Source of the DNA: Candidatus Latescibacterota bacterium
GTDB taxonomy: Bacteria > Latescibacterota > UBA2968 > GCA-2709665
NCBI GenBank assembly: GCA_965237675.1
Contig: OZ250150.1
Span: 5,472,001-5,536,000 of the forward strand
DNA length: 64,000 bases
Direction of reading: 5' to 3'
Shown here: positions 18,728 to 59,759 of the stretch, piece by piece
Position numbering within the stretch: the first letter of the stretch is position 1
Layout: every line of letters begins with the position of its first letter
The notes under the pieces: model-generated
The model's database searches: none
What the model saw: only the letters and a program-made list of their open reading frames with translations
Told to the model about the DNA's origin: nothing
Made by a program: the position numbers and the translations under genes

Positions 18728-19642
18728 TTAAGCAACCTCGAACAGGTAGCGCACCCACTTGTTTGCGACGTCGGAGATGCCATCCACGTCAATTACGAAT
18801 TCCTGCCCTGGGCCTTCCGAGGTGACATGGATCCACGGCGCGGCGCGCCGCCGCATTTTGACTTTACGCTTAAGGCGCCTGCAACCGTCGGCTGGCCAGA
18901 ACCATTCAGGCAGTCTCCAGTGTGAGCATCGGGATGATGCTCCCTTTTCAACTTCCTCCGGCTCGGTCAAGATGATACGGCAGTCTTCGTTCTGAAATAC
19001 GCCGCCTCCGGGTGCGTCGGTTCCAGCGATACTGAGCTTCGGAGTCGAAACGTAGACCGTGTTGTTCATCGGCCTCCGAGGATTGTCGCCCGGTTCCCGG
19101 AATGATCCGTTCAGATGTGGGTGGTCCGATAGCCACGGATACTTGCCCAGAGCGCGGTCGTAGTCCGCAACTGTATGAAGTGCCAAAACTTCATGTACCT
19201 GAAGCCAACCGAAAATCAGATGGACTCTCGGTGCGGTTCTGACGAAACACCAACCGCCGCTGCCATCTTCCTCGACCCGCCGGAACGTTCCGAAGAACAG
19301 GAAAAGGTCACCCTGACAGACGCCCTGATTGGCCAGGTGGGTTTGAGATTCATCTACCAGTCCGAATGCTGGCCGCCATCCGGATTGCCGTGGGATCGCT
19401 TCGTCTCGAAGGTCTGGATCCAGGTGGCACCAACAGTCTTGCCTAACTTTACTCAGGCACTCCACAATCGGCGCGAGCGAGCGACCAACCCACAGAACAT
19501 CGCTAAACCGTTTCGAAGATTGAGGATAACGCTGGGGCGTCGGAATAGGGAGGGAGAGGATTCTCCCGTCTGGGAAAATCGGGCTATGGCTCTTTCCAGT
19601 TTTCGAGTCGAATCCCTTGCGGCTGAGCACGATTCTCTTCAT
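18728..19642 (-). CDS. Nucleotide modification associated domain 3 (Nmad3) protein
   Basis: MKRIVLSRKGFDS..SPIFPDG..SLPIP, CHLDPDL, GDLFLFFG, GPGQEFV. Confidence 0.8.
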   Translation of the reverse strand: MKRIVLSRKGFDSKTGKSHSPIFPDGRILSLPIPTPQRYPQSSKRFSDVLWVGRSLAPIVECLSKVRQDCWCHLDPDLRDEAIPRQSGWRPAFGLVDESQTHLANQGVCQGDLFLFFGTFRRVEEDGSGGWCFVRTAPRVHLIFGWLQVHEVLALHTVADYDRALGKYPWLSDHPHLNGSFREPGDNPRRPMNNTVYVSTPKLSIAGTDAPGGGVFQNEDCRIILTEPEEVEKGASSRCSHWRLPEWFWPADGCRRLKRKVKMRRRAAPWIHVTSEGPGQEFVIDVDGISDVANKWVRYLFEVA

Positions 19643-19645
19643 CGG

Positions 19646-19682
19646 TAAAGTCCTCGTTGTTCTGATGGAAAATTCCCTGTCT
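19646..19682 (-). repeat. solitary CRISPR-like repeat (family B), 3' end remodelled into the Nmad3 RBS
   Basis: Core ttgttctgatggaaaattc (19657-19675); minus strand reads TTCCATCAGAACAACGAGGACTTTACCG-ATG. Confidence 0.7.
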
Positions 19683-19785
19683 ACAATCTCCTCAAGTCCG
19701 GCGCCTAATGGGCCGGCCGGCACGATTCGACTCGAACCCACAACGTGCATCCGGACAAAGCGGCGGCTTGTCGCGTGAGGTGGAT

Positions 19786-20424
19786 CTAACGCATCTCCAA
19801 CCGTTCGCCGCGCCGAAGCAGCCCGAGGCTCTCGGCGATGCGCCGCTCCCGAGTTGCCTCGCGTTTGGCCGTCCCTATCCACGTGATGAACTGGCGCTGG
19901 TACGAAGGCGCCAGGGTGTTCCAAAAGGCTTGAGCATTGGGATCGGCTTCCAAGGCGGCTGAGAACGCGTGCGCCATCTCGAACCGAGCCGCCTCAGGCT
20001 TCCAACCCCAGGTTCCGCTACGCTTCGCTTCGTCGATCAGGCGCTGGCCGGCGGCCGTCATCTTGCCGGACGCGCGCAGCCGGTCGACGCGCTTACGGTT
20101 CGTTTCCGACCACCGGCTCCCCGGCCTTCTCGGCGTGAAGCGGTGCATGTAGCGCTCGTCGTCGATCCGCTGCTTCGTCCCGTCGATCCAGCCAAAACAC
20201 AGCGCTTCCTCGACCGCGTCGTTGTACGTCGCTGTCGGTTTGTCCACGTGTTTCTTGTAGAACACCACCCAGACCGCGTCGACGCGATCGTGGTTCGCGC
20301 ACAGCCAGCGTCGCCAACAGGACCGGCTTCTCGGGGTGAAGCGCCGCTCCGGCGTGGACCTCGCCGCCTGCCTCGACCTGCCGGGAAGGGAAACATCGAC
20401 TGCTTTCTTGTCCGAATCAGGCAT
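19786..20424 (-). CDS. YdeI/OmpD-associated family protein
   Basis: AVEEALCFGWIDG, FTPRRPGSRWSETN, AKREATRERRI. Confidence 0.9.
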   Translation of the reverse strand: MPDSDKKAVDVSLPGRSRQAARSTPERRFTPRSRSCWRRWLCANHDRVDAVWVVFYKKHVDKPTATYNDAVEEALCFGWIDGTKQRIDDERYMHRFTPRRPGSRWSETNRKRVDRLRASGKMTAAGQRLIDEAKRSGTWGWKPEAARFEMAHAFSAALEADPNAQAFWNTLAPSYQRQFITWIGTAKREATRERRIAESLGLLRRGERLEMR

Positions 20425-23002: not shown

Positions 23003-25672
23003 GTTTCAATCCGCTCCCCCCACCGAAGTGAGGGGAGATGTCATCTCGGGCGCGTGCGCGAAGTCCTTCCACGAGTTTCAATCCGCTCCCCCCACCGAAG
23101 TGAGGGGAGATATTCAGGATGTTTCCGCGTCTATCGTTCCGTCTCCGGTTTCAATCCGCTCCCCCCACCGAAGTGAGGGGAGATATGGACGAAGAAGTCA
23201 TACACTACGACTCCCGGATAGGTTTCAATCCGCTCCCCCCACCGAAGTGAGGGGAGATTTTTATGATGGACTGGATAGACGCCGAAAGAAACAGTTTCAA
23301 TCCGCTCCCCCCACCGAAGTGAGGGGAGATCTGTATCCGTGCGCCTCATCGCCCTCGACCTCTCACAAGTTTCAATCCGCTCCCCCCACCGAAGTGAGGG
23401 GAGATCAGCGCGGGTATGCCTTCCTCGCGCACGACATCCAAAGTTTCAATCCGCTCCCCCCACCGAAGTGAGGGGAGATGAATCTGACGGGTATCGTACC
23501 CGCCGTCCCACTCGAGTTTCAATCCGCTCCCCCCACCGAAGTGAGGGGAGATCCTTCGCGTATGACGAGGGCCTTGATCCTTTCATGAGACAGTTTCAAT
23601 CCGCTCCCCCCACCGAAGTGAGGGGAGATCGCTTGCTCGGTGGCTGAGAGTTGCGATACTTACGTGTTTCAATCCGCTCCCCCCACCGAAGTGAGGGGAG
23701 ATCTCCCAGGCGGCACAATGGCGGTTAGTGGGAACCAGGTTTCAATCCGCTCCCCCCACCGAAGTGAGGGGAGATCGCCGGGCGGCGACCTGTGGGAAGC
23801 GTCGGGGATGGTCGTTTCAATCCGCTCCCCCCACCGAAGTGAGGGGAGATGCCGTGGGCGTTTTCATTCCGGGAAAGGCTGACATGTTTCAATCCGCTCC
23901 CCCCACCGAAGTGAGGGGAGATCAGGGGCCGCTTGCCGGGGTTACCATCAAGGATCCGCGTTTCAATCCGCTCCCCCCACCGAAGTGAGGGGAGATCTCT
24001 GTCGGGCATGGCGAAAAGAACCAACAAAAGCAAGTTTCAATCCGCTCCCCCCACCGAAGTGAGGGGAGATATCCTTATCTCGCGCCGGCACTGTTGGGTA
24101 CGACGAGTTTCAATCCGCTCCCCCCACCGAAGTGAGGGGAGATTTAAACCGGGGCCACAATACAGGAGGGTAAATAATGGTTTCAATCCGCTCCCCCCAC
24201 CGAAGTGAGGGGAGATGTCGGCCGGAATTCTTGCCGAACACGATAGCGCAGTTTCAATCCGCTCCCCCCACCGAAGTGAGGGGAGATTAATGCCTGATTT
24301 TACTGGCGAACAAAAGAAAAAGTTTCAATCCGCTCCCCCCACCGAAGTGAGGGGAGATGGGCGCACAGATCGCCTCTGAGCGTTCCTTTTGTGGTTTCAA
24401 TCCGCTCCCCCCACCGAAGTGAGGGGAGATTCCTGTCTTCATCCGTGAATACATATCCTTCAGGCATGTTTCAATCCGCTCCCCCCACCGAAGTGAGGGG
24501 AGATCTACGATGCGGTATCGGATGTCGGTGCCTGCAATGTTTCAATCCGCTCCCCCCACCGAAGTGAGGGGAGATAGACAGCGGGTGGGCATTGACGACT
24601 GACGCGATAGGTTTCAATCCGCTCCCCCCACCGAAGTGAGGGGAGATTTGTCTGCCGGACGCGGCGCAATGCCGTCGCCATAAGTTTCAATCCGCTCCCC
24701 CCACCGAAGTGAGGGGAGATCCCGAAATGCAAGGGTGGTGGGACAAGTGCACTCAGGACGTTTCAATCCGCTCCCCCCACCGAAGTGAGGGGAGATGCGC
24801 GATGACGCCAAGACAAAAGTCATTCACAATGTTTCAATCCGCTCCCCCCACCGAAGTGAGGGGAGATTCGTAACCGTGCACGAACTGCTCAAAAGCGTCG
24901 ATGGTTTCAATCCGCTCCCCCCACCGAAGTGAGGGGAGATCCACGCCCCGCGCGGGTTCGCGCAACTCGTAGGAATGTTTCAATCCGCTCCCCCCACCGA
25001 AGTGAGGGGAGATTGCCTGTCTCCTCTTGAATCAGTGACGCGCTCAGGTTTCAATCCGCTCCCCCCACCGAAGTGAGGGGAGATTCATTTTCGTGCCTAC
25101 CTGCACAGCGAAAGACACGGTGTTTCAATCCGCTCCCCCCACCGAAGTGAGGGGAGATTCCCCGACCCCTCCCCTCCCACGGCCGTTCCTCCACGTTTCA
25201 ATCCGCTCCCCCCACCGAAGTGAGGGGAGATCAGGTTGCTCGACAAGGCCGTCCCAGGGGCTACGTGTTTCAATCCGCTCCCCCCACCGAAGTGAGGGGA
25301 GATGTGTCGCCTGTGGCCCTGGGGGTTTTGACCCGTACAGGTTTCAATCCGCTCCCCCCACCGAAGTGAGGGGAGATCCGTGGTGTCCTGGGCCTTGCCC
25401 TGGGTCTATACTGGTTTCAATCCGCTCCCCCCACCGAAGTGAGGGGAGATGTGCCGTCGCGGGCGTACGTCACCTCGGAACCAAAGGTTTCAATCCGCTC
25501 CCCCCACCGAAGTGAGGGGAGATCCAGGGGCGTCCGTGGGAGAGGCGGGTGGTGGGTCCGGGTTTCAATCCGCTCCCCCCACCGAAGTGAGGGGAGATGT
25601 ACGTGGTCGCGGCGGCTTACGCCGCGCTGGGTACGGTTTCAATCCGCTCCCCCCACCGAAGTGAGGGGAGAT
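23003..25672 (-). CRISPR. type I-C CRISPR array, 37 repeats / 36 spacers
   Basis: 37-nt repeat ATCTCCCCTCACTTCGGTGGGGGGAGCGGATTGAAAC (minus strand), period about 73 nt, counted by eye. Confidence 0.98.
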
Positions 25673-25852: not shown

Positions 25853-26140
25853 CTATAAAACCAGCGGACCCGATAGGTCCACGGGTTTACTGATACCGTG
25901 ATGCTCTGTCTCCTTTCCGGTGTCTTCGTCCAGGTGATAGATTCGAAGGGAGTCTTGCTCATGATCGATTTCCTTTAACAAACGATTTCGGAGCACGGCC
26001 CATTCCGTTTTTCCGACCTTACATTCAAACAGCGACTTTTGTACTCGTACGCCGAAATCCTCACAGGCTCTTGCGACGCGCCGCAGTCGCTTTTGTCCAG
26101 CCCGGTCAATCGTCGAGACGTCGTACGCGATCAGTTTCAA
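25853..26140 (-). CDS. cas2: CRISPR-associated endonuclease Cas2
   Basis: IAYDVST..RLRRVARACEDFGVRVQKSLFEC..DSLRIY; probable TTG start. Confidence 0.95.
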   Translation of the reverse strand: MKLIAYDVSTIDRAGQKRLRRVARACEDFGVRVQKSLFECKVGKTEWAVLRNRLLKEIDHEQDSLRIYHLDEDTGKETEHHGISKPVDLSGPLVL

Positions 26141-26170
26141 TCCGCTCTCCTGCAATAGAACAGGTGAAAT
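26134..26170 (-). repeat. 37-nt array-repeat mimic over the cas2 RBS/start
   Basis: ATTTCACCTGTTCTATTGCAGGAGAGCGGATTGAAAC; 16/17 match at the 3' end, 7/9 at the 5' end. Confidence 0.75.
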
Positions 26171-26176
26171 CCTACT

Positions 26177-27238
26177 TCATTTGGGTATGTACGGGATATA
26201 GTCGGGAATATCGCCACGGAGCTTTCGCGCCAGCAACCTGGCTTGAATGCTGAACACCTGCCCTAAACGGATATTTTCCTTGAACAGCGCGTGCTTTACC
26301 TCGGTTTGCTTCCGGCGTTGCCAGGCCTGGATAACCTCTTTCCTGCCCCGGTCGGTAAACTCCACTGCGCCGCCTTCGCGCTCGAGGAAGTGTCCAGGTT
26401 CAATCTGGCGACGATTGATCAGGGTCAATGCCAGCCGCTCAGCCAAACAGGGTCGGAACTCTTCCATCAGATCCAGCGCACAAGCCGGCCTACCAGCCCT
26501 TGTGGCATGGAGCCAGCCGACGTACGGGTCCAGCCCAGCGGTCGTCAACGCGGCCAAACAGTCGTGCCGCACCAGTGCGTAGATGAAGGAAAGCAGGCAG
26601 TTTACCCGGTCACGGGGCGGACGCCGCGAGCGCGTAATAAATCTGAAGTCTTCCCGCTGTTGTTTAAGCATGTACTGGAAGGCCGAGAAATATTTCCTGG
26701 CGCCCAGACCTTCCATACCCCTGATCGGATCGAGTGCCTCCCGAAGCCCGCAATTCGTTGCAACGGGTGGAGCATTGCCGAGTTGATCGATCAGCCGGGC
26801 TAATTCATCTGCGGCACCCACCAACTCCCTGCGGTCCGAATCCGTCTCGGCTTCGCGGCCGGACCGCAATAGATTGGAACGCGAATTCTGCAGCTTTCCG
26901 GCGACGAACTGCCGGGCAATGCGAGCAGCAACCTCCGGGCTGTCCGCCGCCGCGTATTGAGCCCGGCGGAGCAGATACCGGGTGTCTCCGCTTCCCAGAA
27001 CCTGCGCCAGCAGATGTCCGTTCTCGGTATGGTAATGGACGGCAACCTGATGCTGCCAGCACAGGGACATTGCAGGTGGCGTAACCACGACCCGACCGAA
27101 CGCGCAGATACTTTCCAGGTGATGAATCGGCACGGTCAATCGTGTTTGTTTTTCGATTTCGACCCGGAGCGTCAAATGATCCCTGTGGACAACAGTGCCC
27201 GGAGTCGTCAGATACAGGGTGTTCTGGATGATAGCCAT
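26177..27238 (-). CDS. cas1: type I-C Cas1
   Basis: NTLYLTT, RGMEG..A..YF, RSRRPPRDRVNCLLSF, ALDLMEEFR. Confidence 0.97.
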   Translation of the reverse strand: MAIIQNTLYLTTPGTVVHRDHLTLRVEIEKQTRLTVPIHHLESICAFGRVVVTPPAMSLCWQHQVAVHYHTENGHLLAQVLGSGDTRYLLRRAQYAAADSPEVAARIARQFVAGKLQNSRSNLLRSGREAETDSDRRELVGAADELARLIDQLGNAPPVATNCGLREALDPIRGMEGLGARKYFSAFQYMLKQQREDFRFITRSRRPPRDRVNCLLSFIYALVRHDCLAALTTAGLDPYVGWLHATRAGRPACALDLMEEFRPCLAERLALTLINRRQIEPGHFLEREGGAVEFTDRGRKEVIQAWQRRKQTEVKHALFKENIRLGQVFSIQARLLARKLRGDIPDYIPYIPK

Positions 27239-27281: not shown

Positions 27282-27983
27282 TTAGTCTGAGGTGTCGAAC
27301 ACCTCCCGGCCGGCTTGAAGAAGGATGGGCGGAGCGCTGGTTATTTCGGGAAGGCAGTAATGAAAAAGCGAGCACTCCGAACATTGTGGCTTATGGACGG
27401 CTTGGGGGACCACTTCCTCTTCGATAAGCCGATGCACGGCTTCGATGGCGTGTTCTGTGAGTCGGCGCAGATCGCCGTCAAACTCAACTTCTCGCCGGCG
27501 CCTGCTCGTGGCGTGGTAGATAGCCCCTCGGGGAATCTCCAATTCGAACATTTCTTCGAGGCACAACGCTTGTGCGCAAAGCTGGGCGTCATCGTTGTCG
27601 AACTTGCGGCGTTTGCCCTTCTTATATTCAACTGGATAGACGCTTTCGACATTATCCGGCAAATATCGGGTTTTTTTTCGCTTAGAAGAACGTTTGAGTT
27701 TCACCTCAACAATATCGCATTTTCCAGAGAGCCCCAGCCTTTGGGACCATACCGGCAATGCCCGAAGCACTTCTGTATGTGCCGCCTTCTCGTACCCTGG
27801 TACATCGGCCTGCTCGTGAAATTGACTGCCGATTAGCGTGTGCTCGTTTTCGGTGAAAGTACCCTCGACATGGATCAAGCCCGCCCGCCGAGGGCAATAG
27901 AGGTACTGGTTGATAGCGGAGAGCGGAATGATCCGCTCTCCGCTATCGTACGGGTGGATCGGCTGGAAAACGGATTCATTCAT
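27282..27983 (-). CDS. cas4: Cas4
   Basis: YCPRR, GKCDIVE, PVEYKKG, QLCAQALCLEEM, CSECSL..C. Confidence 0.95.
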   Translation of the reverse strand: MNESVFQPIHPYDSGERIIPLSAINQYLYCPRRAGLIHVEGTFTENEHTLIGSQFHEQADVPGYEKAAHTEVLRALPVWSQRLGLSGKCDIVEVKLKRSSKRKKTRYLPDNVESVYPVEYKKGKRRKFDNDDAQLCAQALCLEEMFELEIPRGAIYHATSRRRREVEFDGDLRRLTEHAIEAVHRLIEEEVVPQAVHKPQCSECSLFHYCLPEITSAPPILLQAGREVFDTSD

Positions 27984-28929
27984 GACGCCTATTTAAGCAA
28001 ATGCCGGCGGGCAGATCGACACTGTCCCATCCGCAGCCAACCTCATAATCGGCGAAGGATTGCGGGAATTCCACGCTGTCCTTCAGTTTTACCTCTATTC
28101 CCTCAAAAAGCTTGTGGGCATGGGCACAGCCGAGGCGGGCTTCGCGTTTTTTTTGTTCGGCATTATTTTCATGTTGGGTGCCAACGTGCTCAAAGTCGTA
28201 AATCCCTCGCACCACCATTTCACCGCGAGCAGCGGAGCGGTCATGCTCGAACATCTGGTTGAGCGCATCGAAGAGGACATCGAGGTCGGCGTTAGTGAAC
28301 CCGGTGCGTTCGGCAAAAGCAGGCGAGACGTAAACCTTGGCGGCGAAGAGGGCATAGGGTACGATGTGCTTATTGCCCATGGTGCGTTCCTTGTCTGCGT
28401 CCTCCTCTTTTGTGACGGCACCGCGAGTAATGGAGATCTCCAGTGGCGTGATAGGATGGTACGACTGGCCAAAGGTGAACTGCACCGGACCGCGCACCTG
28501 ACCCCAAGCGGAGCCTTTCATGATGCTTTCCCCTACGCCGAGTACACCGCCGAACGCACGCACATCAAAGAACTCACGGCACAGCCATTTCATGGCAGCT
28601 TCTTGCTTCTCGTTCTTGGAAGCACCCGAGTCCAAACTCTCGGCACTTTTCTCAACGCCATTGTCGATCTCGTTATTGATTATGGCACCCTGCCTTATCA
28701 ACAGATTATAGCCGTTGGCATCATCTTCAGCCCGTTCGGGCGAGAACATTTCAACGAAGTTGCGCACCTTACGCTTGAGGCACACGTCGGAGACGAGACC
28801 CCGATTGGTGTTGTGATCTTGACGCGGCATGTTACCAGCATCGGGATCGCCATTGGGATTTCCGTTGGTGACCTCGAAGAGCAGCAAAACGTCGTGCCGA
28901 TTGGTGAGAATATCGTTGTTTCGATTCAT
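27976..28929 (-). CDS. cas7: Cas7/Csd2
   Basis: NGNPNGDPDAGNMPR, SDVCLKRKVRN, FDVRAFG, GQVRGPVQ, FEHDRSAARG. Confidence 0.97.
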   Translation of the reverse strand: MNRNNDILTNRHDVLLLFEVTNGNPNGDPDAGNMPRQDHNTNRGLVSDVCLKRKVRNFVEMFSPERAEDDANGYNLLIRQGAIINNEIDNGVEKSAESLDSGASKNEKQEAAMKWLCREFFDVRAFGGVLGVGESIMKGSAWGQVRGPVQFTFGQSYHPITPLEISITRGAVTKEEDADKERTMGNKHIVPYALFAAKVYVSPAFAERTGFTNADLDVLFDALNQMFEHDRSAARGEMVVRGIYDFEHVGTQHENNAEQKKREARLGCAHAHKLFEGIEVKLKDSVEFPQSFADYEVGCGWDSVDLPAGICLNRRHE

Positions 28930-28954
28930 TGATGAATTCCTTTCTGTGAAAGAT

Positions 28955-30802
28955 TTATTGGTTGCTTTCCTTTTTTTCTTGTGCTGCCTCGCGGGCGACG
29001 CGGTCGGCGGCTTTTTGCTGGTAAAAACCGAGGGCGAAACGCCCCTGCGCGTGCAAATCCAACGTACGGGGGAATGGGTAGATTTTGGTTGACACTTCTT
29101 GAATAGCCTCGTCCAAGAAGCGGTCATGTCCTTTGTACTTATCGGACTTGCGGATATTGTTGAGATGGTGGCGGTTGAGCTTGAGGAGGACCGGAAACAC
29201 CGAGGCTGGCGAGGCCATGGCAGTACCAAAATAACGCTCGGCGACTCCGGCTCCTTCGAGCTGATAATCATGTGCCTTGGCTTGGGCCTCGGTGAGCACA
29301 GCGAGCAACCGTCCGCATTGATAGGCGGCATCTTCCGCCTTTGCGTCCTGTTGTTCAGTAATTTCCATGGTGTTTCCCTTTCGGTTTCGATTGAGAACGA
29401 GCTTTGCCAAGGCTAACCGGGAATGGTTCAACAATGCCGTGCTTCCATCGCGTGCCATATCAACGCGCAGGCGGTTCAACAGGGGATGCAAAAGAGCAAG
29501 TGAGGGCGCGGTCCCTTCCAGCGCGGCGCGAAATAACTGAGCGGTCACTTCCGTCTGCAAATCTTTTGCGTCGCGTACTGTAGTGCAAGCCAGTCGGAAC
29601 AGGGCTAATGGCGGCATCTTTTCTTTGCCAGTGGGCAGGCGCACCGGCTCCAGATCGAGATCGCGGAACCAGCGCCGCAGATTTTCCGTGGCGGTTTCCA
29701 GCGTCGTTTGCATCCAGTGGCGCACAACGATGCGGCCACTATTGCCCGCGAGAGTGACGGCATGGAACTGCTCCTGCCGCATTGCATCGCGTTCCTGTCC
29801 GACCCACGGGGACTTCAAAAAATGCGCCACTGCCATGGGATCGGCTTGGTTGAGTAAAACACCCCAATCGCTGGTGGCGTCCGTTTCATTCCGAGTCCAA
29901 AAACAGCATGATGCCTGCCCTAAGCGGATGGAATGATCTTTGCGGCCAAGCATCGCGTTGAGCGCGGTGCAATAGGCGGTGGCCGCCCGGGTGGAGGTGG
30001 AAGCATTTAGACTTTGCTCAAAACCGTAGGAGGCGAAGGCATCCTTATCAAACGAGACAATCGACGCGCCGAAGGCTTGGGTGTTGGGCACGCCTTGGAC
30101 TTTGGGGTTGTGGGTCATCGCAATAGGCTGATCGCTCTCCCCGGTGACCAAACAGAGTCCGTGGGGCGCATCCGCCTCGTGGTCTTCATTTTCCTTCTCG
30201 AATTGATTCCGCCAAAAGGGCCGGATGTGAATTTCATCCTCCAGAAGCAATTGCTCCTCCACGCGGAATGAAAAGTTGTCCGGCCCTAGTTTAACCTCTC
30301 CGCCATCGGCTTTGGTGATCCACCAAGCAGGTTTCTCCTTGGGCTTGGCGTCAGAACTGATACCCCAGCGCATAAAGGACAGCATCTGTCCCGGTTCGGG
30401 CTTGAACGCCAACAGGGTCTTGAGCGTCAGACTGAGTGTGTGCTCCTGCGCCTTTTCAATCTGCGCCCAAAAGTCATTGTACTTACGCAAATTGTTCTCA
30501 TTACGGTCCTTCCGCTTCTTTTCGGACATAGGTTGTTCCGGGTTCGCGTCAAATCCGAACACGGCCGTAATGCCATCCGCCATGAACTCGGCCACCCCGC
30601 CAGCCACCTTGGGCCGAGTTGTCTTTGGACAATCGAACTCCTTGCCTCGGTTCCTTTCCCCCTCGGTTTCCACCGGCCCTTGGCCCACGAGATTGCCCAT
30701 CGTGTCCAAAGTAACGATCCATCGCACTGCCTTTGGTTTGAAAGCTAGGTTATTCAGCAGTTTTCGAGATTTCGCGAAATCGTTCAAATGTTGCAGCAGC
30801 AT
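28955..30802 (-). CDS. cas8c: Cas8c/Csd1
   Basis: CLVTG, IVSFDKDAFASYG, NSGRIVVR, AYQCGRLLA, QGRFALGFYQQ. Confidence 0.95.
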   Translation of the reverse strand: MLLQHLNDFAKSRKLLNNLAFKPKAVRWIVTLDTMGNLVGQGPVETEGERNRGKEFDCPKTTRPKVAGGVAEFMADGITAVFGFDANPEQPMSEKKRKDRNENNLRKYNDFWAQIEKAQEHTLSLTLKTLLAFKPEPGQMLSFMRWGISSDAKPKEKPAWWITKADGGEVKLGPDNFSFRVEEQLLLEDEIHIRPFWRNQFEKENEDHEADAPHGLCLVTGESDQPIAMTHNPKVQGVPNTQAFGASIVSFDKDAFASYGFEQSLNASTSTRAATAYCTALNAMLGRKDHSIRLGQASCCFWTRNETDATSDWGVLLNQADPMAVAHFLKSPWVGQERDAMRQEQFHAVTLAGNSGRIVVRHWMQTTLETATENLRRWFRDLDLEPVRLPTGKEKMPPLALFRLACTTVRDAKDLQTEVTAQLFRAALEGTAPSLALLHPLLNRLRVDMARDGSTALLNHSRLALAKLVLNRNRKGNTMEITEQQDAKAEDAAYQCGRLLAVLTEAQAKAHDYQLEGAGVAERYFGTAMASPASVFPVLLKLNRHHLNNIRKSDKYKGHDRFLDEAIQEVSTKIYPFPRTLDLHAQGRFALGFYQQKAADRVAREAAQEKKESNQ

Positions 30803-30804
30803 TA

Positions 30805-31602
30805 TCAAATCCCTTTTGGTTCGAGAATTTCAACTTCGTCGGGATGACAAACCAAGGTGGAATCCTTCATCTTGGCGCGGAAGAAACAGGCTTCGGGTCG
30901 AGCCAATTCGCCGACAAAACGTGCGGTATTCTTCTTGGGTCCCAGTTCATCGGGGCGTTTCCAGCGAAAGCCCTGAGCACGTGCCGTGGGCGGAAAAACA
31001 TCATAGAGCATCAAGCCCAAGTCCTCCACGGGCTGTCGCCAACTGATGCCCAGCTCAGTAGCTCGCCCTTCCAGCGCGGCCTGGGGATCATCAACCCACT
31101 CGAAATCCGCCGCGAATTCACGCATACCCAAGGCGGGCCGGTGGAAGCACTTGCCCTGCTGAGCGCGGCGCTTGAACTCGACGAAATACTTCACCGGTGT
31201 GTCGTTCGGGCGATTCGCCAACGGTGTGGTACGCAGTTCGGCACTGATGATGTATTCCACCTCTTGGAGAGCCAACATATTGCGCTGAGTGCCGTCAGGT
31301 GCGCCGCCCCCAGCCTCAATGGGCGATACCTTCTCCGGCTGAGCCATCCATTGGCCGACATTGCGCAGGCTGATGACTGACTGCACTTCATTGCGCCGAA
31401 TCGAGGCCCAGCGTCCTCGCCGAACCACCCGGACGACAGCGACGCAATAACAAACTTGAGGTTCCCAAAACACGGCTTCCAAAATGCCACGTGCGGCAGA
31501 GGGCGTCATCACCGAATAGCTGACGCGCTCCACTTTCATTTCGGGGCGAGTGAAACAAGCCCAATCGCCCCATACTCTGAGATGTACATGATTGTTTTTC
31601 AT
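30805..31602 (-). CDS. cas5: Cas5c (Cas5d)
   Basis: VWGDWACFTRPEMKVERVSYSVMTPSAARGILEA. Confidence 0.97.
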   Translation of the reverse strand: MKNNHVHLRVWGDWACFTRPEMKVERVSYSVMTPSAARGILEAVFWEPQVCYCVAVVRVVRRGRWASIRRNEVQSVISLRNVGQWMAQPEKVSPIEAGGGAPDGTQRNMLALQEVEYIISAELRTTPLANRPNDTPVKYFVEFKRRAQQGKCFHRPALGMREFAADFEWVDDPQAALEGRATELGISWRQPVEDLGLMLYDVFPPTARAQGFRWKRPDELGPKKNTARFVGELARPEACFFRAKMKDSTLVCHPDEVEILEPKGI

Positions 31603-31640
31603 GTTTCAATCCATTCCTCATACTGATGGAAAGGGGAAAC
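31603..31640 (-). repeat. repeat mimic directly abutting the cas5 ATG
   Basis: GTTTCCCCTTTCCATCAGTATGAGGAATGGATTGAAAC-ATG. Confidence 0.7.
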
Positions 31641-31682
31641 CTTCCTGCGGTGTGCGGATGCTAAACACAATTCGACCTCGCT

Positions 31683-31866
31683 TCATAACAAGAAATCCTC
31701 GGTCGGACGTTGGTCGATAACTACGCCGAGATGTTCGTGATAGGCTGCTTCATCCAGTACGCTCAACTCCATACCGGGCAACACCGGACGAAGCAGTCCC
31801 ATTTTATCAGCTTTCTGAAAGTCGCGCAAATGAAGATTCACCATAAAACGTTGGAGGTCGCGCAAA
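31683..31866 (-). pseudogene. cas3: Cas3 C-terminal fragment separated by IS256
   Basis: LRDLQRFMVNL... rejoins in frame with ...RKDLR when the IS and one TSD are removed. Confidence 0.85.
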
Positions 31867-33291
31867 GGGCAAGTACTATTATTAGTTGAAATAGCAGAGG
31901 CGTTCAATCAGCGGCGAAAGCGTTTTGCGTGTCATGATCGAGCGCGAGATGATTGCGTAGGGCAAGTCTGAGTACGGGAAGAAAGCGGTATCCTTTGATC
32001 CTCCGCAATCGGGGCTCGATATCCAACAGCGCGGCTGCCAACCACCGATATCGCTGATCGGAGTTGTTCCATCGTTTCACATTACGGGTGCGCTGTGCGA
32101 TCATGGCGTTGAGGGATTCGATGCAGTTGGTGGTGCGAAACGATTGCTTGAGTTGTGGCATCAGTCCCAGGCGATGGAGGGTGAGGGTTTCTTCGAGCCC
32201 TTCCTCCAGGCTGTTGAGGGCCGATGCATTCATCAGGGTCAGGGAGGGCTTGAGGGCATACAGCGCGGCTTTGGCTTCTTTGTAGGTGTCCATGTCGTAG
32301 GCACTTTGAAGCGCTTTCTTGACCTCACTCTGCTGTGTCTTGGGCAAATAGGCGATCACGTTCTCCCGTTTGTGCCACTGACAGCGTTGAATGGCGACAT
32401 AACCGGAAAGGGCTTTTGTGAGGGCACTATACAAGCCCTTTGAGCCGTCGATGAGGCAAAGCAGCCCTTGGTGATACTGCAATCCGCGATCGATGAGCGA
32501 ATCGACAAACTGGCGGCACACGCGCTCATTTTCGCTGGCGGCCTGCACGAACCCCAGCGGGATCTTGTGCCCGTCGATGGTCACGCCAAGGGCGATGATC
32601 ATTTCCTGATCGGCAAAGGTCTTGCCATCCATAAACAGCCCCACCAGGTCATAGCCCGAAAGAAACCGTTCTTGAAACTGTCTCAGCTTGGCCGCCGATG
32701 CCCTGATGAACCGCCTCGAGACACTCGATGAAGACAAGCCAAACGCCTCGGGTATCGCCTCTGCGCAACTGGCGTAAGAACGCGTCGCAATGCCGCTGAC
32801 CACGCGCAGCAGCAACCCTCCGTCCATGTTTCTGGGTCGCTGCAAGTGGTGATATACCTCCAGAGGAACTTCCTCATTGGCTTCCACGTCACGCACCCTG
32901 GGCACCGTAATGGGCACTTTTTGATCCGACAGATACACCGATCCCGGTTGAGCGCCCCACCGACGATTCGGGGTCTTGCCCGCTTTACGACTGTGTTTCT
33001 TGCCCGTCAACCCGGCAACCTCTTGCTGCAAGATTTCTGCCACAGCGTCCAGACCAAGCGGGATCAGCGCTTGGATCAATGCCACACGGACGTCAACATC
33101 CTCCAGGGCTTCTCCCAGGAAGGCGCCAGACGTCACCCCGGCATCCCTATTCGACTTGACTTCACGGAGGTTCGACGGTACTTTTTTCATCACAGGCTCC
33201 TTTGGTTGAGGATACGGTCTTCTTCGTCGAGACTGCCGTATCCAATTTACATCGGAGCCTCTTCTATTTCAACTAAGATAGGCACAATCCC
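31867..33291 (-). mobile_element. IS256-family insertion sequence
   Basis: 8-bp TSD CGCGCAAA (31859-31866, 33292-33299); about 34-bp imperfect TIR GGG...TTAGTTGAAATAG.AGAGG. Confidence 0.93.
31904..33193 (-). CDS. IS256-family transposase
   Basis: FMDG, LIDGSKGL, QRCQWHKRENV, RTTNCIES. Confidence 0.95.
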   Translation of the reverse strand: MMKKVPSNLREVKSNRDAGVTSGAFLGEALEDVDVRVALIQALIPLGLDAVAEILQQEVAGLTGKKHSRKAGKTPNRRWGAQPGSVYLSDQKVPITVPRVRDVEANEEVPLEVYHHLQRPRNMDGGLLLRVVSGIATRSYASCAEAIPEAFGLSSSSVSRRFIRASAAKLRQFQERFLSGYDLVGLFMDGKTFADQEMIIALGVTIDGHKIPLGFVQAASENERVCRQFVDSLIDRGLQYHQGLLCLIDGSKGLYSALTKALSGYVAIQRCQWHKRENVIAYLPKTQQSEVKKALQSAYDMDTYKEAKAALYALKPSLTLMNASALNSLEEGLEETLTLHRLGLMPQLKQSFRTTNCIESLNAMIAQRTRNVKRWNNSDQRYRWLAAALLDIEPRLRRIKGYRFLPVLRLALRNHLALDHDTQNAFAAD

Positions 33292-35368
33292 CGCGCAAAT
33301 CCTTGCGAGTAAAGCGCAGACCCTCTATTTGAGGGCGGCTTCGGATAGCGGCTACCTTTTCCAAGGCTTTCTCCCTTGGCGCAATTACGGCCTGGGTGTC
33401 GTCAGAAATTACCTTTGCCTTGCGGGCTACTTCACGGAAACGCAATGCCTCCCGATCCTCCTGAATGGAGCATTCCCGTTGGCGATGATGATCCGTGGGC
33501 ACGTATTGAAAAAGCTCGCCAAAGTAACGACTGAACAGATCCGGCTCGTTGGTCAAGTCATCCGCAGACAACTGATCCAGCAACCGCACCGCAATGTCCG
33601 TGGCTACCCGATACACGCCGCCGGGCAGCTTGGCGTCCGTTGGCCGGAAAACCACCACGCGCCCCTTGCCCGGTAGGCGGCCTTCCCGATTGCACCGTCC
33701 AGCTGCCTGCACAATCGAATCCAGCGGCCCCAATGCGCGGTAAACCAACGGGAAATCAATATCCACCCCGGCCTCTACCACCTGAGTAGATACCAACCAG
33801 CAGAACCTGCCTTCCCTCAAACGCCGATGGACTTTTTTTAACACCTGGGTTCGATGTTCTGCACACATTGAGGAAGAAAGATGGAATACGCTTCTCAGTT
33901 TCGCTACCAACGCTTCTCTGCTCAATTCCCCCTCGTTTAGAGAAACCCGCAGCCGTTCCCACCATTCGGTAGCCTGTCTGCGCGTATTCACGACGCCCAA
34001 GGCTTGAGGCTCGCTCGCCCATTCCGCAGCCAATTCTGACCAATCGCTCTCCGTGGTTCGCACCTCGTACACTACCCGGCCCAACTTCTGAAACAACTCG
34101 CCATGCTGTGACGCGACTTCCTTCATTTCATCCGCATCAAACCCATTCGACAACGACGTGCTGCGCCTAAAGGCCGGTTGGGTAGCGGTAGAGAAAACGA
34201 AACTCGTGCGATAGTGTTTCTCAAGATCGCGTAGCACGTGCAGGAGCGGATTGAGCAGATACGAAGGCAGGGTCTGCACCTCATCCAGCAATACCACGGC
34301 ATTCGCGATGTTGTGCAGTTTCCGGCACTTGGAGGTACGGTTGGCGAAGAGTGACTCGATGAACTGCACCGAGGTAGTGACGACAATTGGCGCATCCCAG
34401 TTCTCCGCCGCCAGTTCCCCTGGGGATCGGACTTGCTCCTCATCGTCATCCTTTGCGACCACGGCCGAATGGTGTTCAATCACGATGCCTTCGTCTTGGG
34501 GATCGAGTATGTTGCGGTATTCGGCGGCGTTCTGCTCAATAATTGACAGGTAAGGTATCACCACTATAACCCGCTGCATTCCATGCGCCCGCGCATGTTC
34601 CAAGGCAAAGGCCATGCTCGATAGTGTTTTGCCCCCACCCGTCGGCACGGTCAAAGAAAAGAAGCCTGCTGGCTCCGCCGCCTTCGCCAAGCAGTCTTCA
34701 AACACTCTGTTGCGCAACTTATTGAGTTCGCCGGACGCATCAAACTTGCTCCGGTGCGCTTGCAGTCGCTCCAGCAACAACGCGGCATCCATCTTAACTG
34801 GATGTCGTTGCCGACGGATGTTGAATTGTTCCGTATCCAGAAAATCCGCATCAACCAGGCAGGAAAACAACATCCGCACGTATAATTCCGTGGTGGCCTT
34901 GTCTTTCGCGGGATTGGCAAATTCCGGATCGACTATCTCGTCCCGAATTTCCCCCAGTTCTGCTTCAAATCGCTTTACCAGAGTATCGAGCCGACTGATG
35001 GCATCGTACTTCTTTCCGCAAACCAATGCCTGCAAATCACTCACGTCATGTAGTCCCGCGTGATGCCCCGCGATGGCAAAGGCTGGGCCGAGCCAGTTCT
35101 GCCGAAAAGCCAGCGCGGCACCATACATCGCATGATGAGTTTCAACTGATCCCGGGCGCTCGCCTGCCAGATATTCCTGGAATGGATCCCGATACTTACC
35201 TAAGTCGTGGAGCAGCCCGGTCCATTTCGCAGCCAGACCGAACGGTTCGCCGAATTCACGAGCCTTGTCCGCCACGTTGCGCAGATGCTCGGATAACGGT
35301 TGCCAGCGCGATCTGTCGGAATCGCGTTCCCTCATAGCTGTTTCGGCTGTGTGGGCGTAATAGTTCAT
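33292..35368 (-). pseudogene. cas3: Cas3 HD nuclease-helicase, truncated by IS256
   Basis: YYAH, LLHDLGK, HHAGL, LVDADFLDT, PTGGGKT, DEVQ, QAAGRCNREG. Confidence 0.95.
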
Positions 35369-36372: not shown

Positions 36373-37341
36373 TCACATCCTCTCCTCATACATCTCCCCG
36401 GCCGCAATCATGTCCGCCGCGATCTCACGTCTCAGGTCCACTGGCGCCAGCACCTCGCACTCCGGCCCCCATCCTCGAATCCACGGTTTCATCTCCAGCG
36501 TGTGCTTCACCCTGAGCCGCAGCCGACACCCGCCGTCAGGCTCATCCGCCACCTCTACGACGCCAGGCCAGTCCGATTCCCGCACGCGGTACGCCACCCT
36601 CGCTGAAAACCGCAGTGCCACCTCCACAACTTCCTCCCCACCCATAATGCCCCAAGAGTGCTGCAGAAAGTCATACGGATCGAATCCATTCCGCGCACCA
36701 AACGCCGTCTCCAGCAGCGTTGCCCGTTTGATGCGCTCCACCTTGAACTCCCGAATATCCCTCCGCAGATGGTCATATCCGATGACATAGCAGGCGTATC
36801 CCACGGGTGACGGCTCGATGAAGTAGGGATCAATGGTGCGCTCCGTGGTTTCGCCGGTCTGCGGGTTGTGATAGATCAGACGCACCTGCCTGCGTTCGGA
36901 CCAGGCGCTCGTGAGGGTTTCCAGAACGCGCATATGATCGGGATCGGGTCTGCGTTTGTCGGCAACCTCAGCGGTTCGATTGATGTGTTCGCCAATGGAC
37001 TCCGGCATAGCGCTTGCAAGTTTCTCGAGGGCAGACACTACGTGCGGATTGTGTTCGTCGCTGTGCGCGGAGAGCAGGCGCGCGGCCAGATACAGTGCCA
37101 GGGCCTCGTGCAAATTGACCCGGACGGTGGTCAGATAACGGTCTTTCAGCACACCGAACCGGCCGTCATCCTCCCATATCGGTGATCCCGCCTCCTCCAG
37201 CGACCGAAGATCCCGATACACCGTACTCCGATGCACGCCGAATCGGGTGGCGATATCCGTCGCTTTCCTCCCACCCGCGGATCGATACAGAAACGTCTCG
37301 ATCGCCTTGAGGCGTTCGGCGCGGGTCATCGTTCGTTCCAT
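36373..37341 (-). CDS. HTH-WYL-WCX transcriptional regulator (copy 1)
   Basis: HTH (VHRSTVYRDLRSL), RTIDPY..YVIGYDH..REFKVERI, WIRGWG..CEVLAP. Confidence 0.95.
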   Translation of the reverse strand: MERTMTRAERLKAIETFLYRSAGGRKATDIATRFGVHRSTVYRDLRSLEEAGSPIWEDDGRFGVLKDRYLTTVRVNLHEALALYLAARLLSAHSDEHNPHVVSALEKLASAMPESIGEHINRTAEVADKRRPDPDHMRVLETLTSAWSERRQVRLIYHNPQTGETTERTIDPYFIEPSPVGYACYVIGYDHLRRDIREFKVERIKRATLLETAFGARNGFDPYDFLQHSWGIMGGEEVVEVALRFSARVAYRVRESDWPGVVEVADEPDGGCRLRLRVKHTLEMKPWIRGWGPECEVLAPVDLRREIAADMIAAGEMYEERM

Positions 37342-37377
37342 TTGGAATCCTCCACCTGCGATAAAATAAACATCAGT

Positions 37378-37396
37378 TGTCGCAACTATTGCGACA
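37378..37396. promoter_or_regulatory. putative WYL autoregulatory operator
   Basis: TGTCGCAACTATTGCGACA palindrome 36 nt upstream of the WYL ATG; same at 41362-41380. Confidence 0.7.
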
Positions 37397-37528
37397 GTCC
37401 GCAAAAAAAAATCGCGGACAGCAATCAGTTCACAGCAGTCAGCCAGAAGAAAACAGCGAGAAGCCAACCAGGCGAACGTCACCGCCGTGACGTGGCGATT
37501 GGCTAACCAGGTACTTAAAGGGGATTAA

Positions 37529-38416: not shown

Positions 38417-38739
38417 ATGGGATTCACCGTTGAAATCTACGTCGCTCAAAACGGCAGAAAACCGGTCGCTGAATGGTTCGGCGCTCTCCGCGATATCCGG
38501 ACACAGGCTCGCATAGAAGCCCGTCTCCGCCGATTGAGTCTGGGCCTTTTCGGCGATCACCGGCCGCTTGGTAGAGGTGTCTTGAGATGCGACTCGATTT
38601 CGGTCCGGGTTTTCAAATCTATTTCACACGTTTCACTGCAGACTATTTACTCCTGCTCTGTGGCGGAGACAAGAGCACGCAGCAGAGAGATATCCAGCGG
38701 GCAATATCGTACCTGACTGACTACAAGGAGCGCTCCTGA
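38417..38739 (+). pseudogene. RelE/ParE (HigB-like) toxin with a 1-nt frameshift
   Basis: ARIEARLRRLSLGLFGD then EMRLDFGPGFQIYF..LLLCGGDKSTQQRDI in another frame after about 38582. Confidence 0.85.
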
Positions 38740-39050
38740 TGAAGCCTTCCGTCCCGTTTAAAAAACACCATTTCGAATTCCTGAGTGATCCGGAACGCGC
38801 TCGCGCCTACCTCGAGGTCGCCCTGGAGGATTACGCCAGAGACAAGGACAGATCGATCCTTCTGCTTGCGCTCAAGGACGTAGCCACGGTACAGGGCGGG
38901 ATGGGACGATTGGCCCGGCAGGCGAACCTGAACCGAGCCCACGTATACAAGGCGCTTTCCGAAAAGGGCAATCCTCGTCTGGACACAATGGAGAAAATAC
39001 TCAACAGCCTCGGCTTCAGGCTATCTATCGAACCGCTGGCGAAGCAGTAA
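38739..39050 (+). CDS. addiction-module antidote (HTH) protein
   Basis: AYLEVALE..GGM..LA..YKALSEKGNPRLDT. Confidence 0.9.
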   Translation: MKPSVPFKKHHFEFLSDPERARAYLEVALEDYARDKDRSILLLALKDVATVQGGMGRLARQANLNRAHVYKALSEKGNPRLDTMEKILNSLGFRLSIEPLAKQ

Positions 39051-40051: not shown

Positions 40052-40361
40052 TATCGTGCTCGTCCGATATCCGTTTTCTGACTTGCAGGTATCCAAAGTG
40101 CGTCCGGCCATTATTGTGAGTGCGCTCCATATTTCTCAGGATGTCTTTATTGTCCCACTAACCAGCAGAATAACAAATCTCCTGTCGGGCGAGTTCGTGT
40201 TAGAGAATTGGAAGGAATCGGGACTCAATGTTGCGTCTACCGTTAAACGAGGCATATATACGATTCATCAGAGCTTGATTTTCAAGAAACTTGGATGCCT
40301 CGCACAAAACGATCAAACGACCTTGATTGCATCTTTGCGACGTTGGCTGAACCTCAAATAG
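40029..40361 (+). CDS. PemK/MazF-family toxin
   Basis: DIVLVRYPFSD..KVRPAIIV..PLTS..SGL..S. Confidence 0.9.
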   Translation: MSVYLTNDIVLVRYPFSDLQVSKVRPAIIVSALHISQDVFIVPLTSRITNLLSGEFVLENWKESGLNVASTVKRGIYTIHQSLIFKKLGCLAQNDQTTLIASLRRWLNLK

Positions 40362-41325
40362 ATTTCGATTCATACACCTCCCCAGCCGCGATCATGTCCG
40401 CCGCGATGTCACGCCTCAGGTCCTCCGGGGCCAGCACCTCGCAGTCCGGGCCCCACCCTCGAATCCACGGTTTCATCTCCAGCGTGTGCTTCACCCTGAG
40501 CCGCAGCCGACACCCGCCGTCAGGCTCATCCGCCACCTCTACGACGCCAGGCCAGTCCGATTCCCGCACGCGGTACGCCACCCTCGCTGAAAACCGCAGT
40601 GCCACCTCCACAACTTCCTCCCCACCCATAATGCCCCAAGAGTGCTGCAGAAAGTCATACGGATCGAATCCATTCCGCGCACCAAACGCCGTCTCCAGCA
40701 GCGTTGCCCGTTTGATGCGCTCCACCTTGAACTCCCGAATATCCCTCCGCAGATGGTCATATCCGATGACATAGCAGGCGTATCCCACGGGTGACGGCTC
40801 GATGAAGTAGGGATCAATGGTGCGCTCCGTGGTTTCGCCGGTCTGCGGGTTGTGATAGATCAGACGCACCTGCCTGCGTTCGGACCAGGCGCTCGTGAGG
40901 GTTTCCAGAACGCGCATATGATCGGGATCGGGTCTGCGTTTGTCGGCAACCTCAGCGGTTCGATTGATGTGTTCGCCAATGGACTCCGGCATAGCGCTTG
41001 CAAGTTTCTCGAGGGCAGACACTACGTGCGGATTGTGTTCGTCGCTGTGCGCGGAGAGCAGGCGCGCGGCCAGATACAGTGCCAGGGCCTCGTGCAAATT
41101 GACCCGGACGGTGGTCAGATAACGGTCTTTCAGCACACCGAACCGGCCGTCATCCTCCCATATCGGTGATCCCGCCTCCTCCAGCGACCGAAGATCCCGA
41201 TACACCGTACTCCGATGCACGCCGAATCGGGTGGCGATATCCGTCGCTTTCCTCCCACCCGCGGATCGATACAGAAACGTCTCGATCGCCTTGAGGCGTT
41301 CGGCGCGGGTCATCGTTCGTTCCAT
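40354..41325 (-). CDS. HTH-WYL-WCX regulator (copy 2)
   Basis: Identical to copy 1 except the last ~30 codons. Confidence 0.95.
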   Translation of the reverse strand: MERTMTRAERLKAIETFLYRSAGGRKATDIATRFGVHRSTVYRDLRSLEEAGSPIWEDDGRFGVLKDRYLTTVRVNLHEALALYLAARLLSAHSDEHNPHVVSALEKLASAMPESIGEHINRTAEVADKRRPDPDHMRVLETLTSAWSERRQVRLIYHNPQTGETTERTIDPYFIEPSPVGYACYVIGYDHLRRDIREFKVERIKRATLLETAFGARNGFDPYDFLQHSWGIMGGEEVVEVALRFSARVAYRVRESDWPGVVEVADEPDGGCRLRLRVKHTLEMKPWIRGWGPDCEVLAPEDLRRDIAADMIAAGEVYESKSI

Positions 41326-41905
41326 TTGGAATCCTCCACCTGCGATAAAATAAACATCAGTTGTCGCAACTATTGCGACAGTCCGCAAAAAAAAATCGCG
41401 GACAGCAATCAGTTCACAGCAGTCAGCCAGAAGAAAACAGCCAAAAGCAGATAGCGAAAAGCCAATTAATCGATGTGAGCGCCGCGACGTGGCCGGATCG
41501 GAAAAGACGCTGCGAGGGCAGGATGCCCTCGATCCCAGGAGTCAAAAGCATCGGTCAGCAATCAGTTCACAGCAGTCAGCCAGAAGCAAACAGCGAGAAG
41601 CCAACCAGGCGAACGTCACCGCCGTGACGTGGCGATTGGCTAACCAGGTACTTAAAGGGGATTAACAGTCCGTTGATAAAGTCGCTCTGCAGGCGAGGCC
41701 GAGTCATTGTGGCCGAAGATAAGGCGCGCGACCGCGTCGAATCGGGGGATTCGGGGAGGGAGTGCAACGCAGTAATTCGGCCACAAGGGCCGGCCGCAGC
41801 CCGGATGGACTTTTTCAACGGGCTGTTAAGGGCGCACCAGAACAAAGCCTGCCAATAGGTAATACTGGCAGGCGAGTTGTTGACGGGATTGTCGGGCGGA
41901 TGTTT

Positions 41906-59460: not shown

Positions 59461-59759
59461 GGGAGACGGGAGAGGGAAGACGTGAGAAGACGTCCGTGCC
59501 CGATTGGTTCTTCCTTTATGCCCTTGGCAAGAAATGAAACCGCACGGGGCAGACAATCTCTCCCCTCTAACGTCTACGTCTAACTTCGGTAAGACGTGAG
59601 TCGGGAGACGGGAGAGGGAAGACGTGAGAAGACGTCCGTGCCCGATTGGTTCTTCCTTTATGCCCTTGGCAAGAAATGAAACCGCACGGGGCAGACAATC
59701 TCTCCCCTCTAACGTCTACGTCTAACTTCGGTAAGACGTGAGTCGGGAGACGGGAGAGG
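59461..59759. repeat. 142-bp tandem direct repeat (two copies plus a partial)
   Basis: 59461-59602 equals 59603-59744. Confidence 0.85.

Follow-up and report, generated by a model that had tools for sequence, protein, structure and literature searches.

A degenerate type I-C repeat copy directly before the cas5c start codon in a Latescibacterota CRISPR-Cas operon

Solitary repeats in cas operons have so far been known as guide-like RNA genes that repress promoters, or as phage decoys. In a 64-kb stretch of DNA from Candidatus Latescibacterota bacterium (contig OZ250150.1; hereafter the window, whose positions are used as coordinates throughout) a solitary repeat-like element of 38 nt ends immediately before the ATG of cas5c in a type I-C operon on the minus strand. 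Its position recalls the solitary repeat units (SRUs) of other type I-C systems, which also lie directly before cas5c and are cut by Cas5c on the 3' side of a hairpin so that an 11-nt handle is left (bioRxiv 10.1101/2024.12.27.630466). The crRNA-like RNAs (crlRNAs) made from SRUs are 48-50 nt long, repress promoter sites flanked by TTC or TTA and supervise Nezha, Gabija and 'CRISIS' genes (bioRxiv 10.1101/2024.12.27.630466). The element described here is like them in being a lone repeat in sense orientation between cas3 and cas5c with a hairpin and an 11-nt handle, the structure cut by Cas5c in SRUs, and unlike them in what surrounds it. In SRUs a spacer-like portion, which is non-coding, matches a promoter site flanked by TTC or TTA, and they lie behind inserted non-cas genes, whereas here the handle abuts the AUG and cas5 itself takes the place of the 'spacer'; a target was not found, and apart from an insertion sequence (IS) no gene has been inserted.

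CreR and CreA, which are degenerated mini-CRISPRs, provide a second point of comparison. Through them Cascade represses cas or toxin promoters, CreR operating in this manner in other subtypes, and type I-C examples are mentioned as well (bioRxiv 10.1101/2023.03.10.532045). Like CreR, the element before cas5c is a degenerate repeat inside a cas operon and could couple the level of a Cas protein to cas expression; unlike CreR, which acts on DNA with partial pairing of guide and target, it is proposed to act in cis on the mRNA. A third likeness is to the viral RNA anti-CRISPRs (Racr, including RacrIC1; PMC10651486), which are solitary repeat mimics that engage repeat-binding Cas proteins. Racrs are inhibitors encoded by phages or plasmids, however, and the present element is chromosomal and sits within the cas operon between cas3 and cas5.

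Autogenous control by substrate mimicry or self-cleavage is familiar from the thrS operator and from the rnc and rne leaders, and synthetic Csy4 sites serve as insulators in 5' untranslated regions. The arrangement before cas5 would be like these cases in that a protein that binds or cuts RNA would find its substrate copied within its own message and act on it there; the proteins differ, and for the repeat copy before cas5 this action is a proposal only. No account of repeat copies directly next to a cas start codon turned up in the literature searched; the supplements of the two preprints, which lay outside that search, may list such cases.

The repeat copy before cas5c

The element, which we call psiR, occupies positions 31603-31640 of the minus strand and consists of a hairpin followed by an 11-nt handle, TGGATTGAAAC, the last base of which adjoins the ATG of cas5c (30805-31602, minus strand, 265 aa), the gene of the type I-C pre-crRNA endonuclease. 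The system as a whole was assigned to type I-C by Pfam, and its cas5c matches Cas_Cas5d (PF09704, E 1e-26, match from residue 8); moreover, the product resembles solved Cas5c and type I-C Cascade chains with E values down to 2.4e-39. A longer reading frame for cas5 is excluded by an in-frame TGA two codons 5' of the ATG. The first-pass annotation of this DNA, made from the letters of the sequence, had pointed to a repeat mimic abutting the cas5 ATG, and the 38 nt are indeed found there with the ATG immediately next to them.

A covariance model built from the repeats of seven arrays of the same I-C clade (R1) was run unfiltered over the whole window and matches psiR in full length, at model positions 1-37, with 24.1 bits and an E value of 7.5e-5 for the 64-kb window. 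The 37 array repeats of the window score 57.2 bits each with this model, and genuine I-C repeats of other arrays reach 23-29 bits. Seven of the ten stem pairs of psiR are standard in the R1 alignment, and the handle agrees at 10 of 11 positions. The annotation had further claimed that the element can fold a hairpin, TTCC(A)TCA/TGAGGAA, followed by exactly 11 nt, the geometry of the I-C repeat; this structure is present in the minimum-free-energy fold as well as in the R1 alignment, though the fold is weak at -10.1 kcal/mol (z -1.8; 13 of 200 shuffles equal it), an array repeat reaching -19.1 kcal/mol. The handle follows the hairpin and ends in a ATTGAAAC-type sequence, as expected of an I-C repeat.

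The body of psiR was also compared with individual repeats. Its first 28 nt align with the repeat of a sister genome at a score matched by none of 2000 shuffles, and psiR without its last 10 nt aligns with the resident repeat at a score that a fraction of 0.002 of 2000 shuffles attains; over the whole element, 26 of 38 positions are identical to the resident repeat. In an order-wide BLAST search the best matches of psiR lie in the array of a sister genome (80% identity, E 4e-4). The handle 10-mer GGATTGAAAC occurs 42 times in the window, as compared with 0.18 occurrences expected, and at 62 sites in the genome, namely 37 in the array and 25 others, five of which are in the window, all on the minus strand. 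A genome-wide 'handle regulon' was considered and dropped, the 20 sites outside the window appearing random. The array itself (37 repeats of 37 nt, 23003-25672, found by repeat search and R1, with the crRNA sense on the minus strand) begins at 25672, and psiR stands alone: the nearest other repeat-like match is 5.4 kb off at 26134. The element at 31603-31640 can thus be regarded as securely identified, by these sequence comparisons, as a solitary, degenerate copy of the type I-C repeat of this clade, carried on a derived insertion.

Insertion, message and copies at other cas genes

psiR forms the 3' end of an insertion of 84 nt (31598-31681, minus strand), which comprises 28 codons in frame, is flanked by a duplicated ATGAA and has borders that are ambiguous by 5 nt. 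The insertion split the ATGA in which cas3 ancestrally ended and cas5 began, and it left ATGAA in duplicate: the window reads the ancestral ..TTGTT ATGA A.., then 79 nt and then a second ATGAA, and relatives read ..TTGTT ATGA... It is because of this splitting and duplication that the psiR handle abuts the cas5c AUG. When the IS that interrupts cas3 and one copy of its target duplication are removed by script, cas3 encodes 750 aa and stops at TGA 31685-31683. The actual gap between cas3 and cas5 therefore measures 80 nt (31603-31682), and the repeat copy makes up its final 38 nt.

On comparison of the junctions, the insertion is derived and recent. Two public runs, X4 and X5, which come from two studies, have contigs that lack precisely 31598-31681 (5 shared letters). 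The depths are 24.6 for the skipping contig versus 47.9 for the insertion-bearing contig in X4 and 5 versus 7 in X5; the skipping contigs carry only 30 letters on the short side at 90% likeness and may represent a close relative instead of the same strain. Wherever psiR is present in a run, no difference is seen inside 31603-31640. A source of the 84 nt was not found: two pattern scans of metagenome contigs gave 0 matches, the order-wide BLAST search yielded nothing beyond array repeats in two sister genomes and short spurious matches, and neither a source nor a Racr-type viral origin emerged from a pattern scan of viral contigs (0 matches) or from a BLAST search of phages (one 25-nt match at E 0.8). 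By eye no terminal inverted repeats were seen, and no promoter was flagged within the 84 nt.

What does the insertion do to the message? An upstream open reading frame (uORF) of 22 codons plus stop (31618-31686, minus strand; translation MKRGRIVFSIRTPQEGFPFPSV) now begins at the old cas5 ATG, the one overlapping the cas3 TGA, and the ancestral Shine-Dalgarno (SD)-like GAGGA-N9 is retained before this start. The uORF runs through the psiR hairpin to a UGA stop in its 3' arm, which leaves 15 nt to the cas5 AUG. Among public RNA runs, none was listed that covers 30805-31866. The 3' arm reads GAGGAA, with GAGGA 13 nt before the cas5 AUG. By analogy to SRUs the cut by Cas5c is predicted between 31614 and 31613, at the 3' base of the stem, where it would leave the 11-nt handle; this predicted position falls between the SD-like GAGGA tract and the AUG.

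Further repeat copies are found at the starts of other cas genes. A phylum-level search of 168 genomes yielded nine with this I-C clade, eight of which have complete operons, and in these eight loci R1-recognized or handle-like copies, all in sense orientation, either include the start codon of cas4, cas1 or cas2 or stop 0-10 nt short of it. Between cas7 and cas4 five of the eight loci have a copy by R1 and none further by eye, ending 0-2 nt before the ATG; each of these lies behind a duplicated old stop/start overlap (ATGAGTGA or ATGAGTAAAGCAA), the same insertion signature as that of the cas5 psiR. Between cas4 and cas1 there are four of eight by R1 and three remnants by eye, 0-10 nt before the start, and among the cases seen by eye those of genomes G111 and G048 also have at least 8/10 handle matches (G107, 6/10). 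Between cas1 and cas2 one of the eight is detected by R1, that of this window, and four more by eye, the handle TTG AAA C.. being the cas2 start in this window and in G048. The copy of the window is a second solitary psiR (26134-26171, minus strand; R1 match 26134-26170, 31.3 bits, E 4.9e-7), the handle of which holds the probable cas2 start, TTG at 26140-26138 followed by AAA CTG ATC GCG, and the 3' arm of which has GGAGAG at the Shine-Dalgarno position. Altogether the start codon is a TTG inside the handle in four cases (cas2 of G000 and G048, cas1 of G134 and G150). At the cas5-cas8 and cas8-cas7 junctions of the eight complete loci no repeat copies were found by R1 or by eye.

At least 8/10 handle matches are present in 14 of 48 start windows, versus 3.15% of random windows from the same operons, the loci being related and the counts thus not independent. 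Such copies are missing from three loci that belong to the same clade but to other phyla (cas1 84% identical). Conservation in six psiRs is higher for the handle than for the body (61/66 versus 104/138, or 92% versus 75%), a comparison that is biased, since the model used for finding them weights the handle. A compensatory change in the cas4 psiRs of G034 and G022 was not used; it is seen only if the pairing is shifted so as to draw in some of the handle, and the model alignment does not show it.

Proposed action and its alternatives

How could a repeat copy at a start codon act? We propose that Cas5c binds or cuts psiR in cis, which would result in feedback on Cascade synthesis or in separation of the Cascade message from cas3, and we put the probability of this reading at about one half. 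Cas5c is favored as the actor because psiR keeps the geometry that is cut in SRUs, because it stands in sense orientation and because no Cas6 was found in the genome (Pfam families PF01881 and PF10040); Cas5c is the sole repeat endonuclease found there. The copies at the starts of cas4, cas1 and cas2 in the eight complete loci speak for this reading as well, as does the lack of a TTC/TTA-flanked DNA target above shuffled controls in the window and the genome. It could be imagined that psiR is transcribed within the cas RNA and that Cas5c recognizes the hairpin and handle and cuts between 31614 and 31613. Such a cut would remove from the cas5 AUG the RNA upstream of it, that is the cas3 remnant, read-through from the IS, the 22-codon uORF and the SD-like GAGGA, and the remaining cas5-cas8-cas7 message would begin with the handle, the site of Cas5c/Cas7 nucleation. 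The net effect would be that free Cas5c or Cascade represses its own synthesis and that the Cascade message is physically parted from cas3. The cas5 psiR might then exemplify, for cas5, a tendency of this lineage to place repeat copies at the starts of cas4, cas1 and cas2. More tentatively, and doubtful to us at this breadth, the I-C operon of the lineage may be punctuated by cis-acting repeat mimics at start codons, at cas4, cas1 and cas2 in most loci and at cas5 here, with Cas5c cleavage and Cascade nucleation forming a post-transcriptional circuit that sets the ratio of effector to adaptation proteins and feeds Cascade abundance back on translation, as an RNA-level counterpart of CreR without a DNA target.

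Several observations weigh against an action of Cas5c on psiR. The first-pass annotation had suggested a survey of cas3-cas5 intergenic regions in related loci and had named absence of the motif from homologous loci, together with lack of any processing or regulatory effect, as what would speak against it, and at this junction the absence is what the survey returned. No psiR lies between cas3 and cas5 in 17 other loci of the same Cas5c clade, which show direct read-through or a short gap at most (L012 and L013; L022-L029, L031, L033 and L034, being 11 of the 80 loci examined; and G111, G048, G134 and G150; L136 has the layout of L023 and is counted once with it). The closest relative, G107, with a Cas5 that is 92% identical, has only 13 nt there, TTCGGGGATCGAA, which resemble the first 12 nt of the insertion. 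In addition, alleles without the 84 nt co-occur with insertion-bearing ones in two studies. The hairpin is weak, three of its pairs are non-standard, and its 5' GUUUC can pair with GAAAC of the handle. The uORF could maintain translational coupling without any role of Cas5c. The copies at other junctions come from related loci that are not independent, and they decay, remnants being left in G022 at cas2 and in G107 at cas5. Finally, covariation lends no support: the RNAalifold covariation term of the five cas4 psiRs is +1.16, and for the paired cells the observed value is attained in 23 of 500 shuffles. As an observation apart, the array of L023 begins 744 nt after the cas5 start (4745-4996; L136 alike), and cas8, cas7 and the adaptation genes are missing from this truncated locus.

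The polymorphism in metagenome contigs, the absence from 17 homologous junctions with a remnant in G107, the degenerate stem, the decay at other junctions, the missing covariation signal and the end of the uORF 15 nt before the AUG would suit the main rival, according to which psiR is a neutral passenger: a repeat copy and 41 nt of unknown origin were caught by illegitimate insertion at the ATGA overlap, and binding of Cas5c, if there is any, is inconsequential. The insertion would owe its persistence solely to the ATGAA duplication, which preserved both the stop of cas3 and the start of cas5, and to the uORF and GAGGA, which sustain translation of cas5. We consider this possible but doubtful, as copies recur at three other cas starts, always in sense and never at cas8 or cas7, and as psiR is too diverged from the resident repeat (26/38) for a fresh copy and yet retains 10 of the 11 handle positions. 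Ranking lower than a neutral insertion is the idea that such copies are portable ribosome-binding cassettes that work independently of Cas5c, the 3' arm, which is rich in purines (true repeats have GAGGGGAG, this copy GAGGAA), being the Shine-Dalgarno sequence and the A-rich handle the spacer. GAGGA does stand 13 nt before the AUG, native junctions have similar purine tracts (such as GAGGA-N9-ATG in relatives), and a TTG in the handle is the start codon in four cases; however, the SD-like tract is locked in the stem, a spacing of 13 nt is long, and nothing would be gained, since relatives without the insertion already have a good GAGGA-N9-ATG, which makes this explanation improbable. An accidental origin, be it chance resemblance or the scar of an off-target spacer integration by Cas1-Cas2, is the least credible of all and can nearly be set aside. 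Although the handle 10-mer is present at 25 genomic sites outside the array, 20 of them seemingly random, chance is at odds with the full-length R1 match at E 7.5e-5 and with the significant alignment of the body, and an integration scar would be expected to show a target duplication of repeat length around an insert of spacer size, whereas only 5 nt (ATGAA) are duplicated and the uninterrupted junction of relatives has no repeat-like target.

Also below a neutral insertion, and quite improbable, ranks a trans-acting, crRNA-like guide of the CreR/CRISIS type, in which the handle, the first 31 nt of cas5 and a hairpin at +32 to +60 of cas5 would form an RNA of about 49 nt that loads Cascade and represses a partly matching promoter. 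SRUs directly before cas5c yield crlRNAs of 48-50 nt that carry an 11-nt handle and terminate, on the 3' side, within a hairpin loop (bioRxiv 10.1101/2024.12.27.630466), and the lengths fit at the cas5 psiR. The hairpin in question (7 bp, GGGGCGA/TCGCCCC) is found in relatives without the insertion as well, however, and derives from conserved WGD...TRP codons, and the coding sequence of cas5 would have to serve as the 'spacer'. Among TTC/TTA-flanked targets of a guide that begins at the cas5 AUG, the best one in the window has 12/17 matches with a seed run of 1, and the top target genome-wide has 12/15, as compared with 11-13 for 20 shuffled guides; for the sister psiRs no TTC/TTA-flanked target was found within 18 kb. 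Since no DNA target flanked by such a protospacer-adjacent motif (PAM) stands out above shuffled controls, psiR does not appear to be a crlRNA of the CreR/CRISIS type. A pairing of cas5 nucleotides 4-12 with the reverse strand of the insertion (9/10 by eye) was dropped on account of a misfit of the first three positions and of the PAM. Eleven of the 80 loci (L037, L038, L043, L044, L053, L069, L078, L079, L081, L087 and L089) do have lone R1 matches (E <=1), in either orientation, no more than about 1.1 kb upstream of cas5, which favors a guide, and the nearest sense psiR among them ends 46 nt before the cas5 start and not at 0, leaving space for a guide that the cas5 psiR lacks. In a second I-C type of the same order (L019 8613-8640, L020 10088-10115, L021 8980-9013) a TATAAT, a repeat-like hairpin ending in ATTGAAAC and 30 nt that include AAAGGAG precede the cas5 ATG. 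Their 'spacer' is taken as the ribosome-binding region because no TTC/TTA-flanked target was found within 18 kb. Action of Cas5c on psiR in cis, by binding or by cleavage, remains the reading that we favor.

Family B, surroundings and significance

The first-pass annotation had also ascribed to the element features of both of two repeat families, the I-C repeat and a 'family B', and had pictured the Cascade genes as another repeat-headed cassette. The sharing itself is borne out, TTCCATCAG and GGATTGAAAC being common to psiR and family B. Likeness to family B beyond the handle is not significant (psiR without its last 10 nt: a fraction of 0.45 of 2000 shuffles score as well), whereas likeness to the I-C repeat is; the sister I-C repeat already carries TTACATCAG at the same offset, and the shared TTCCATCAG is matched in it at 8 of 9 positions at equal distance from the handle. 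That family B is a family of CRISPR repeats was ruled out: its units are the 3' coding termini (..FHQN[K/G]D-stop) of small genes that are paralogs of one another. No array of it exists anywhere in the genome, its fold (-3.2 kcal/mol, z +1.15) is not repeat-like, and R1 scores its units at only 12-17 bits. The units of the window (2764, 6772, 7199, 7428, 15015, 15339, 15900 and 21544, minus strand) encode ends of the form ..GIFHQN[K/G]D-stop with the stop inside GGATTGAAAC, and those of L020 (1755, 2110 and 2338) have the same coding ends. The small genes have a WHxDGTPF..DY motif without a Pfam match, and the next gene frequently begins 4 nt later. In another genome of this genus such genes likewise form a tandem immediately after the I-C array, in the same orientation, and copies of the two genomes are 50% identical (E 2e-18). 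The ends of the family B genes copy the I-C handle. Of the cassette picture, the repeat heads are recovered as copies at the cas4, cas1 and cas2 starts of the eight related complete loci, but family B, its supposed model, is not a CRISPR repeat.

The remaining genes of the operon follow on the minus strand by Pfam: cas8c (28955-30808), cas7 (within 27976-29331), cas4 (27282-27983), cas1 (26177-27238) and cas2 (25853-26155). Upstream of psiR, cas3 is in two pieces. Its 5' part with the HD nuclease and helicase (33269-35368, minus strand, Pfam) is truncated after residue 692 and runs for 7 codons into the IS, which separates it from the displaced 3' end, the last 58 codons plus stop (31683-31866, minus strand). 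The IS belongs to the IS256 family (31867-33291, minus strand), encodes a Mutator-type transposase (31904-33193), has terminal inverted repeats and an 8-bp target duplication, CGCGCAAA, and is present in five further copies, 100% identical, elsewhere in the genome. It carries an outward promoter-like TTGAAC-18-AATAAT at 31907-31878, a consensus match only. The interference nuclease Cas3 may thus be disabled in this strain by the IS, the Cascade genes being intact, and truncation of cas3 together with the outward promoter-like site may alter which RNA reaches the repeat copy.

Further out, a WYL/HTH regulator gene lies 5' of cas3 in two copies (36373-37482 and 40354-41388), in segments that are 96-99% identical and about 4 kb apart, with an HI1420-type antidote gene (38739-39050) between them. 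A tandem repeat with a unit of 142 nt is found at 59461-59815, its first 2.1 copies being 100% identical. Downstream of the array, genes for a DDE transposase (13439-14785), GmrSD-type restriction (16175-17995) and Nmad3 (18728-19924) lie among the family B units, and this area looks like a defence island.

If psiR turned out to be neutral, the locus would still document a recurrent and unexplained type of insertion, consisting of a repeat copy and a duplicated stop/start overlap. The two alleles, one naturally carrying and one naturally lacking the 84 nt, offer a ready-made experiment, and the copies at cas4, cas1 and cas2 are independent test cases. If, however, Cas5c does cut or bind a repeat at the start codon, CRISPR systems would have a second means, acting in cis, of sensing how much of their own protein is present, and this would explain how a single operon gives very different amounts of Cascade and adaptation proteins.
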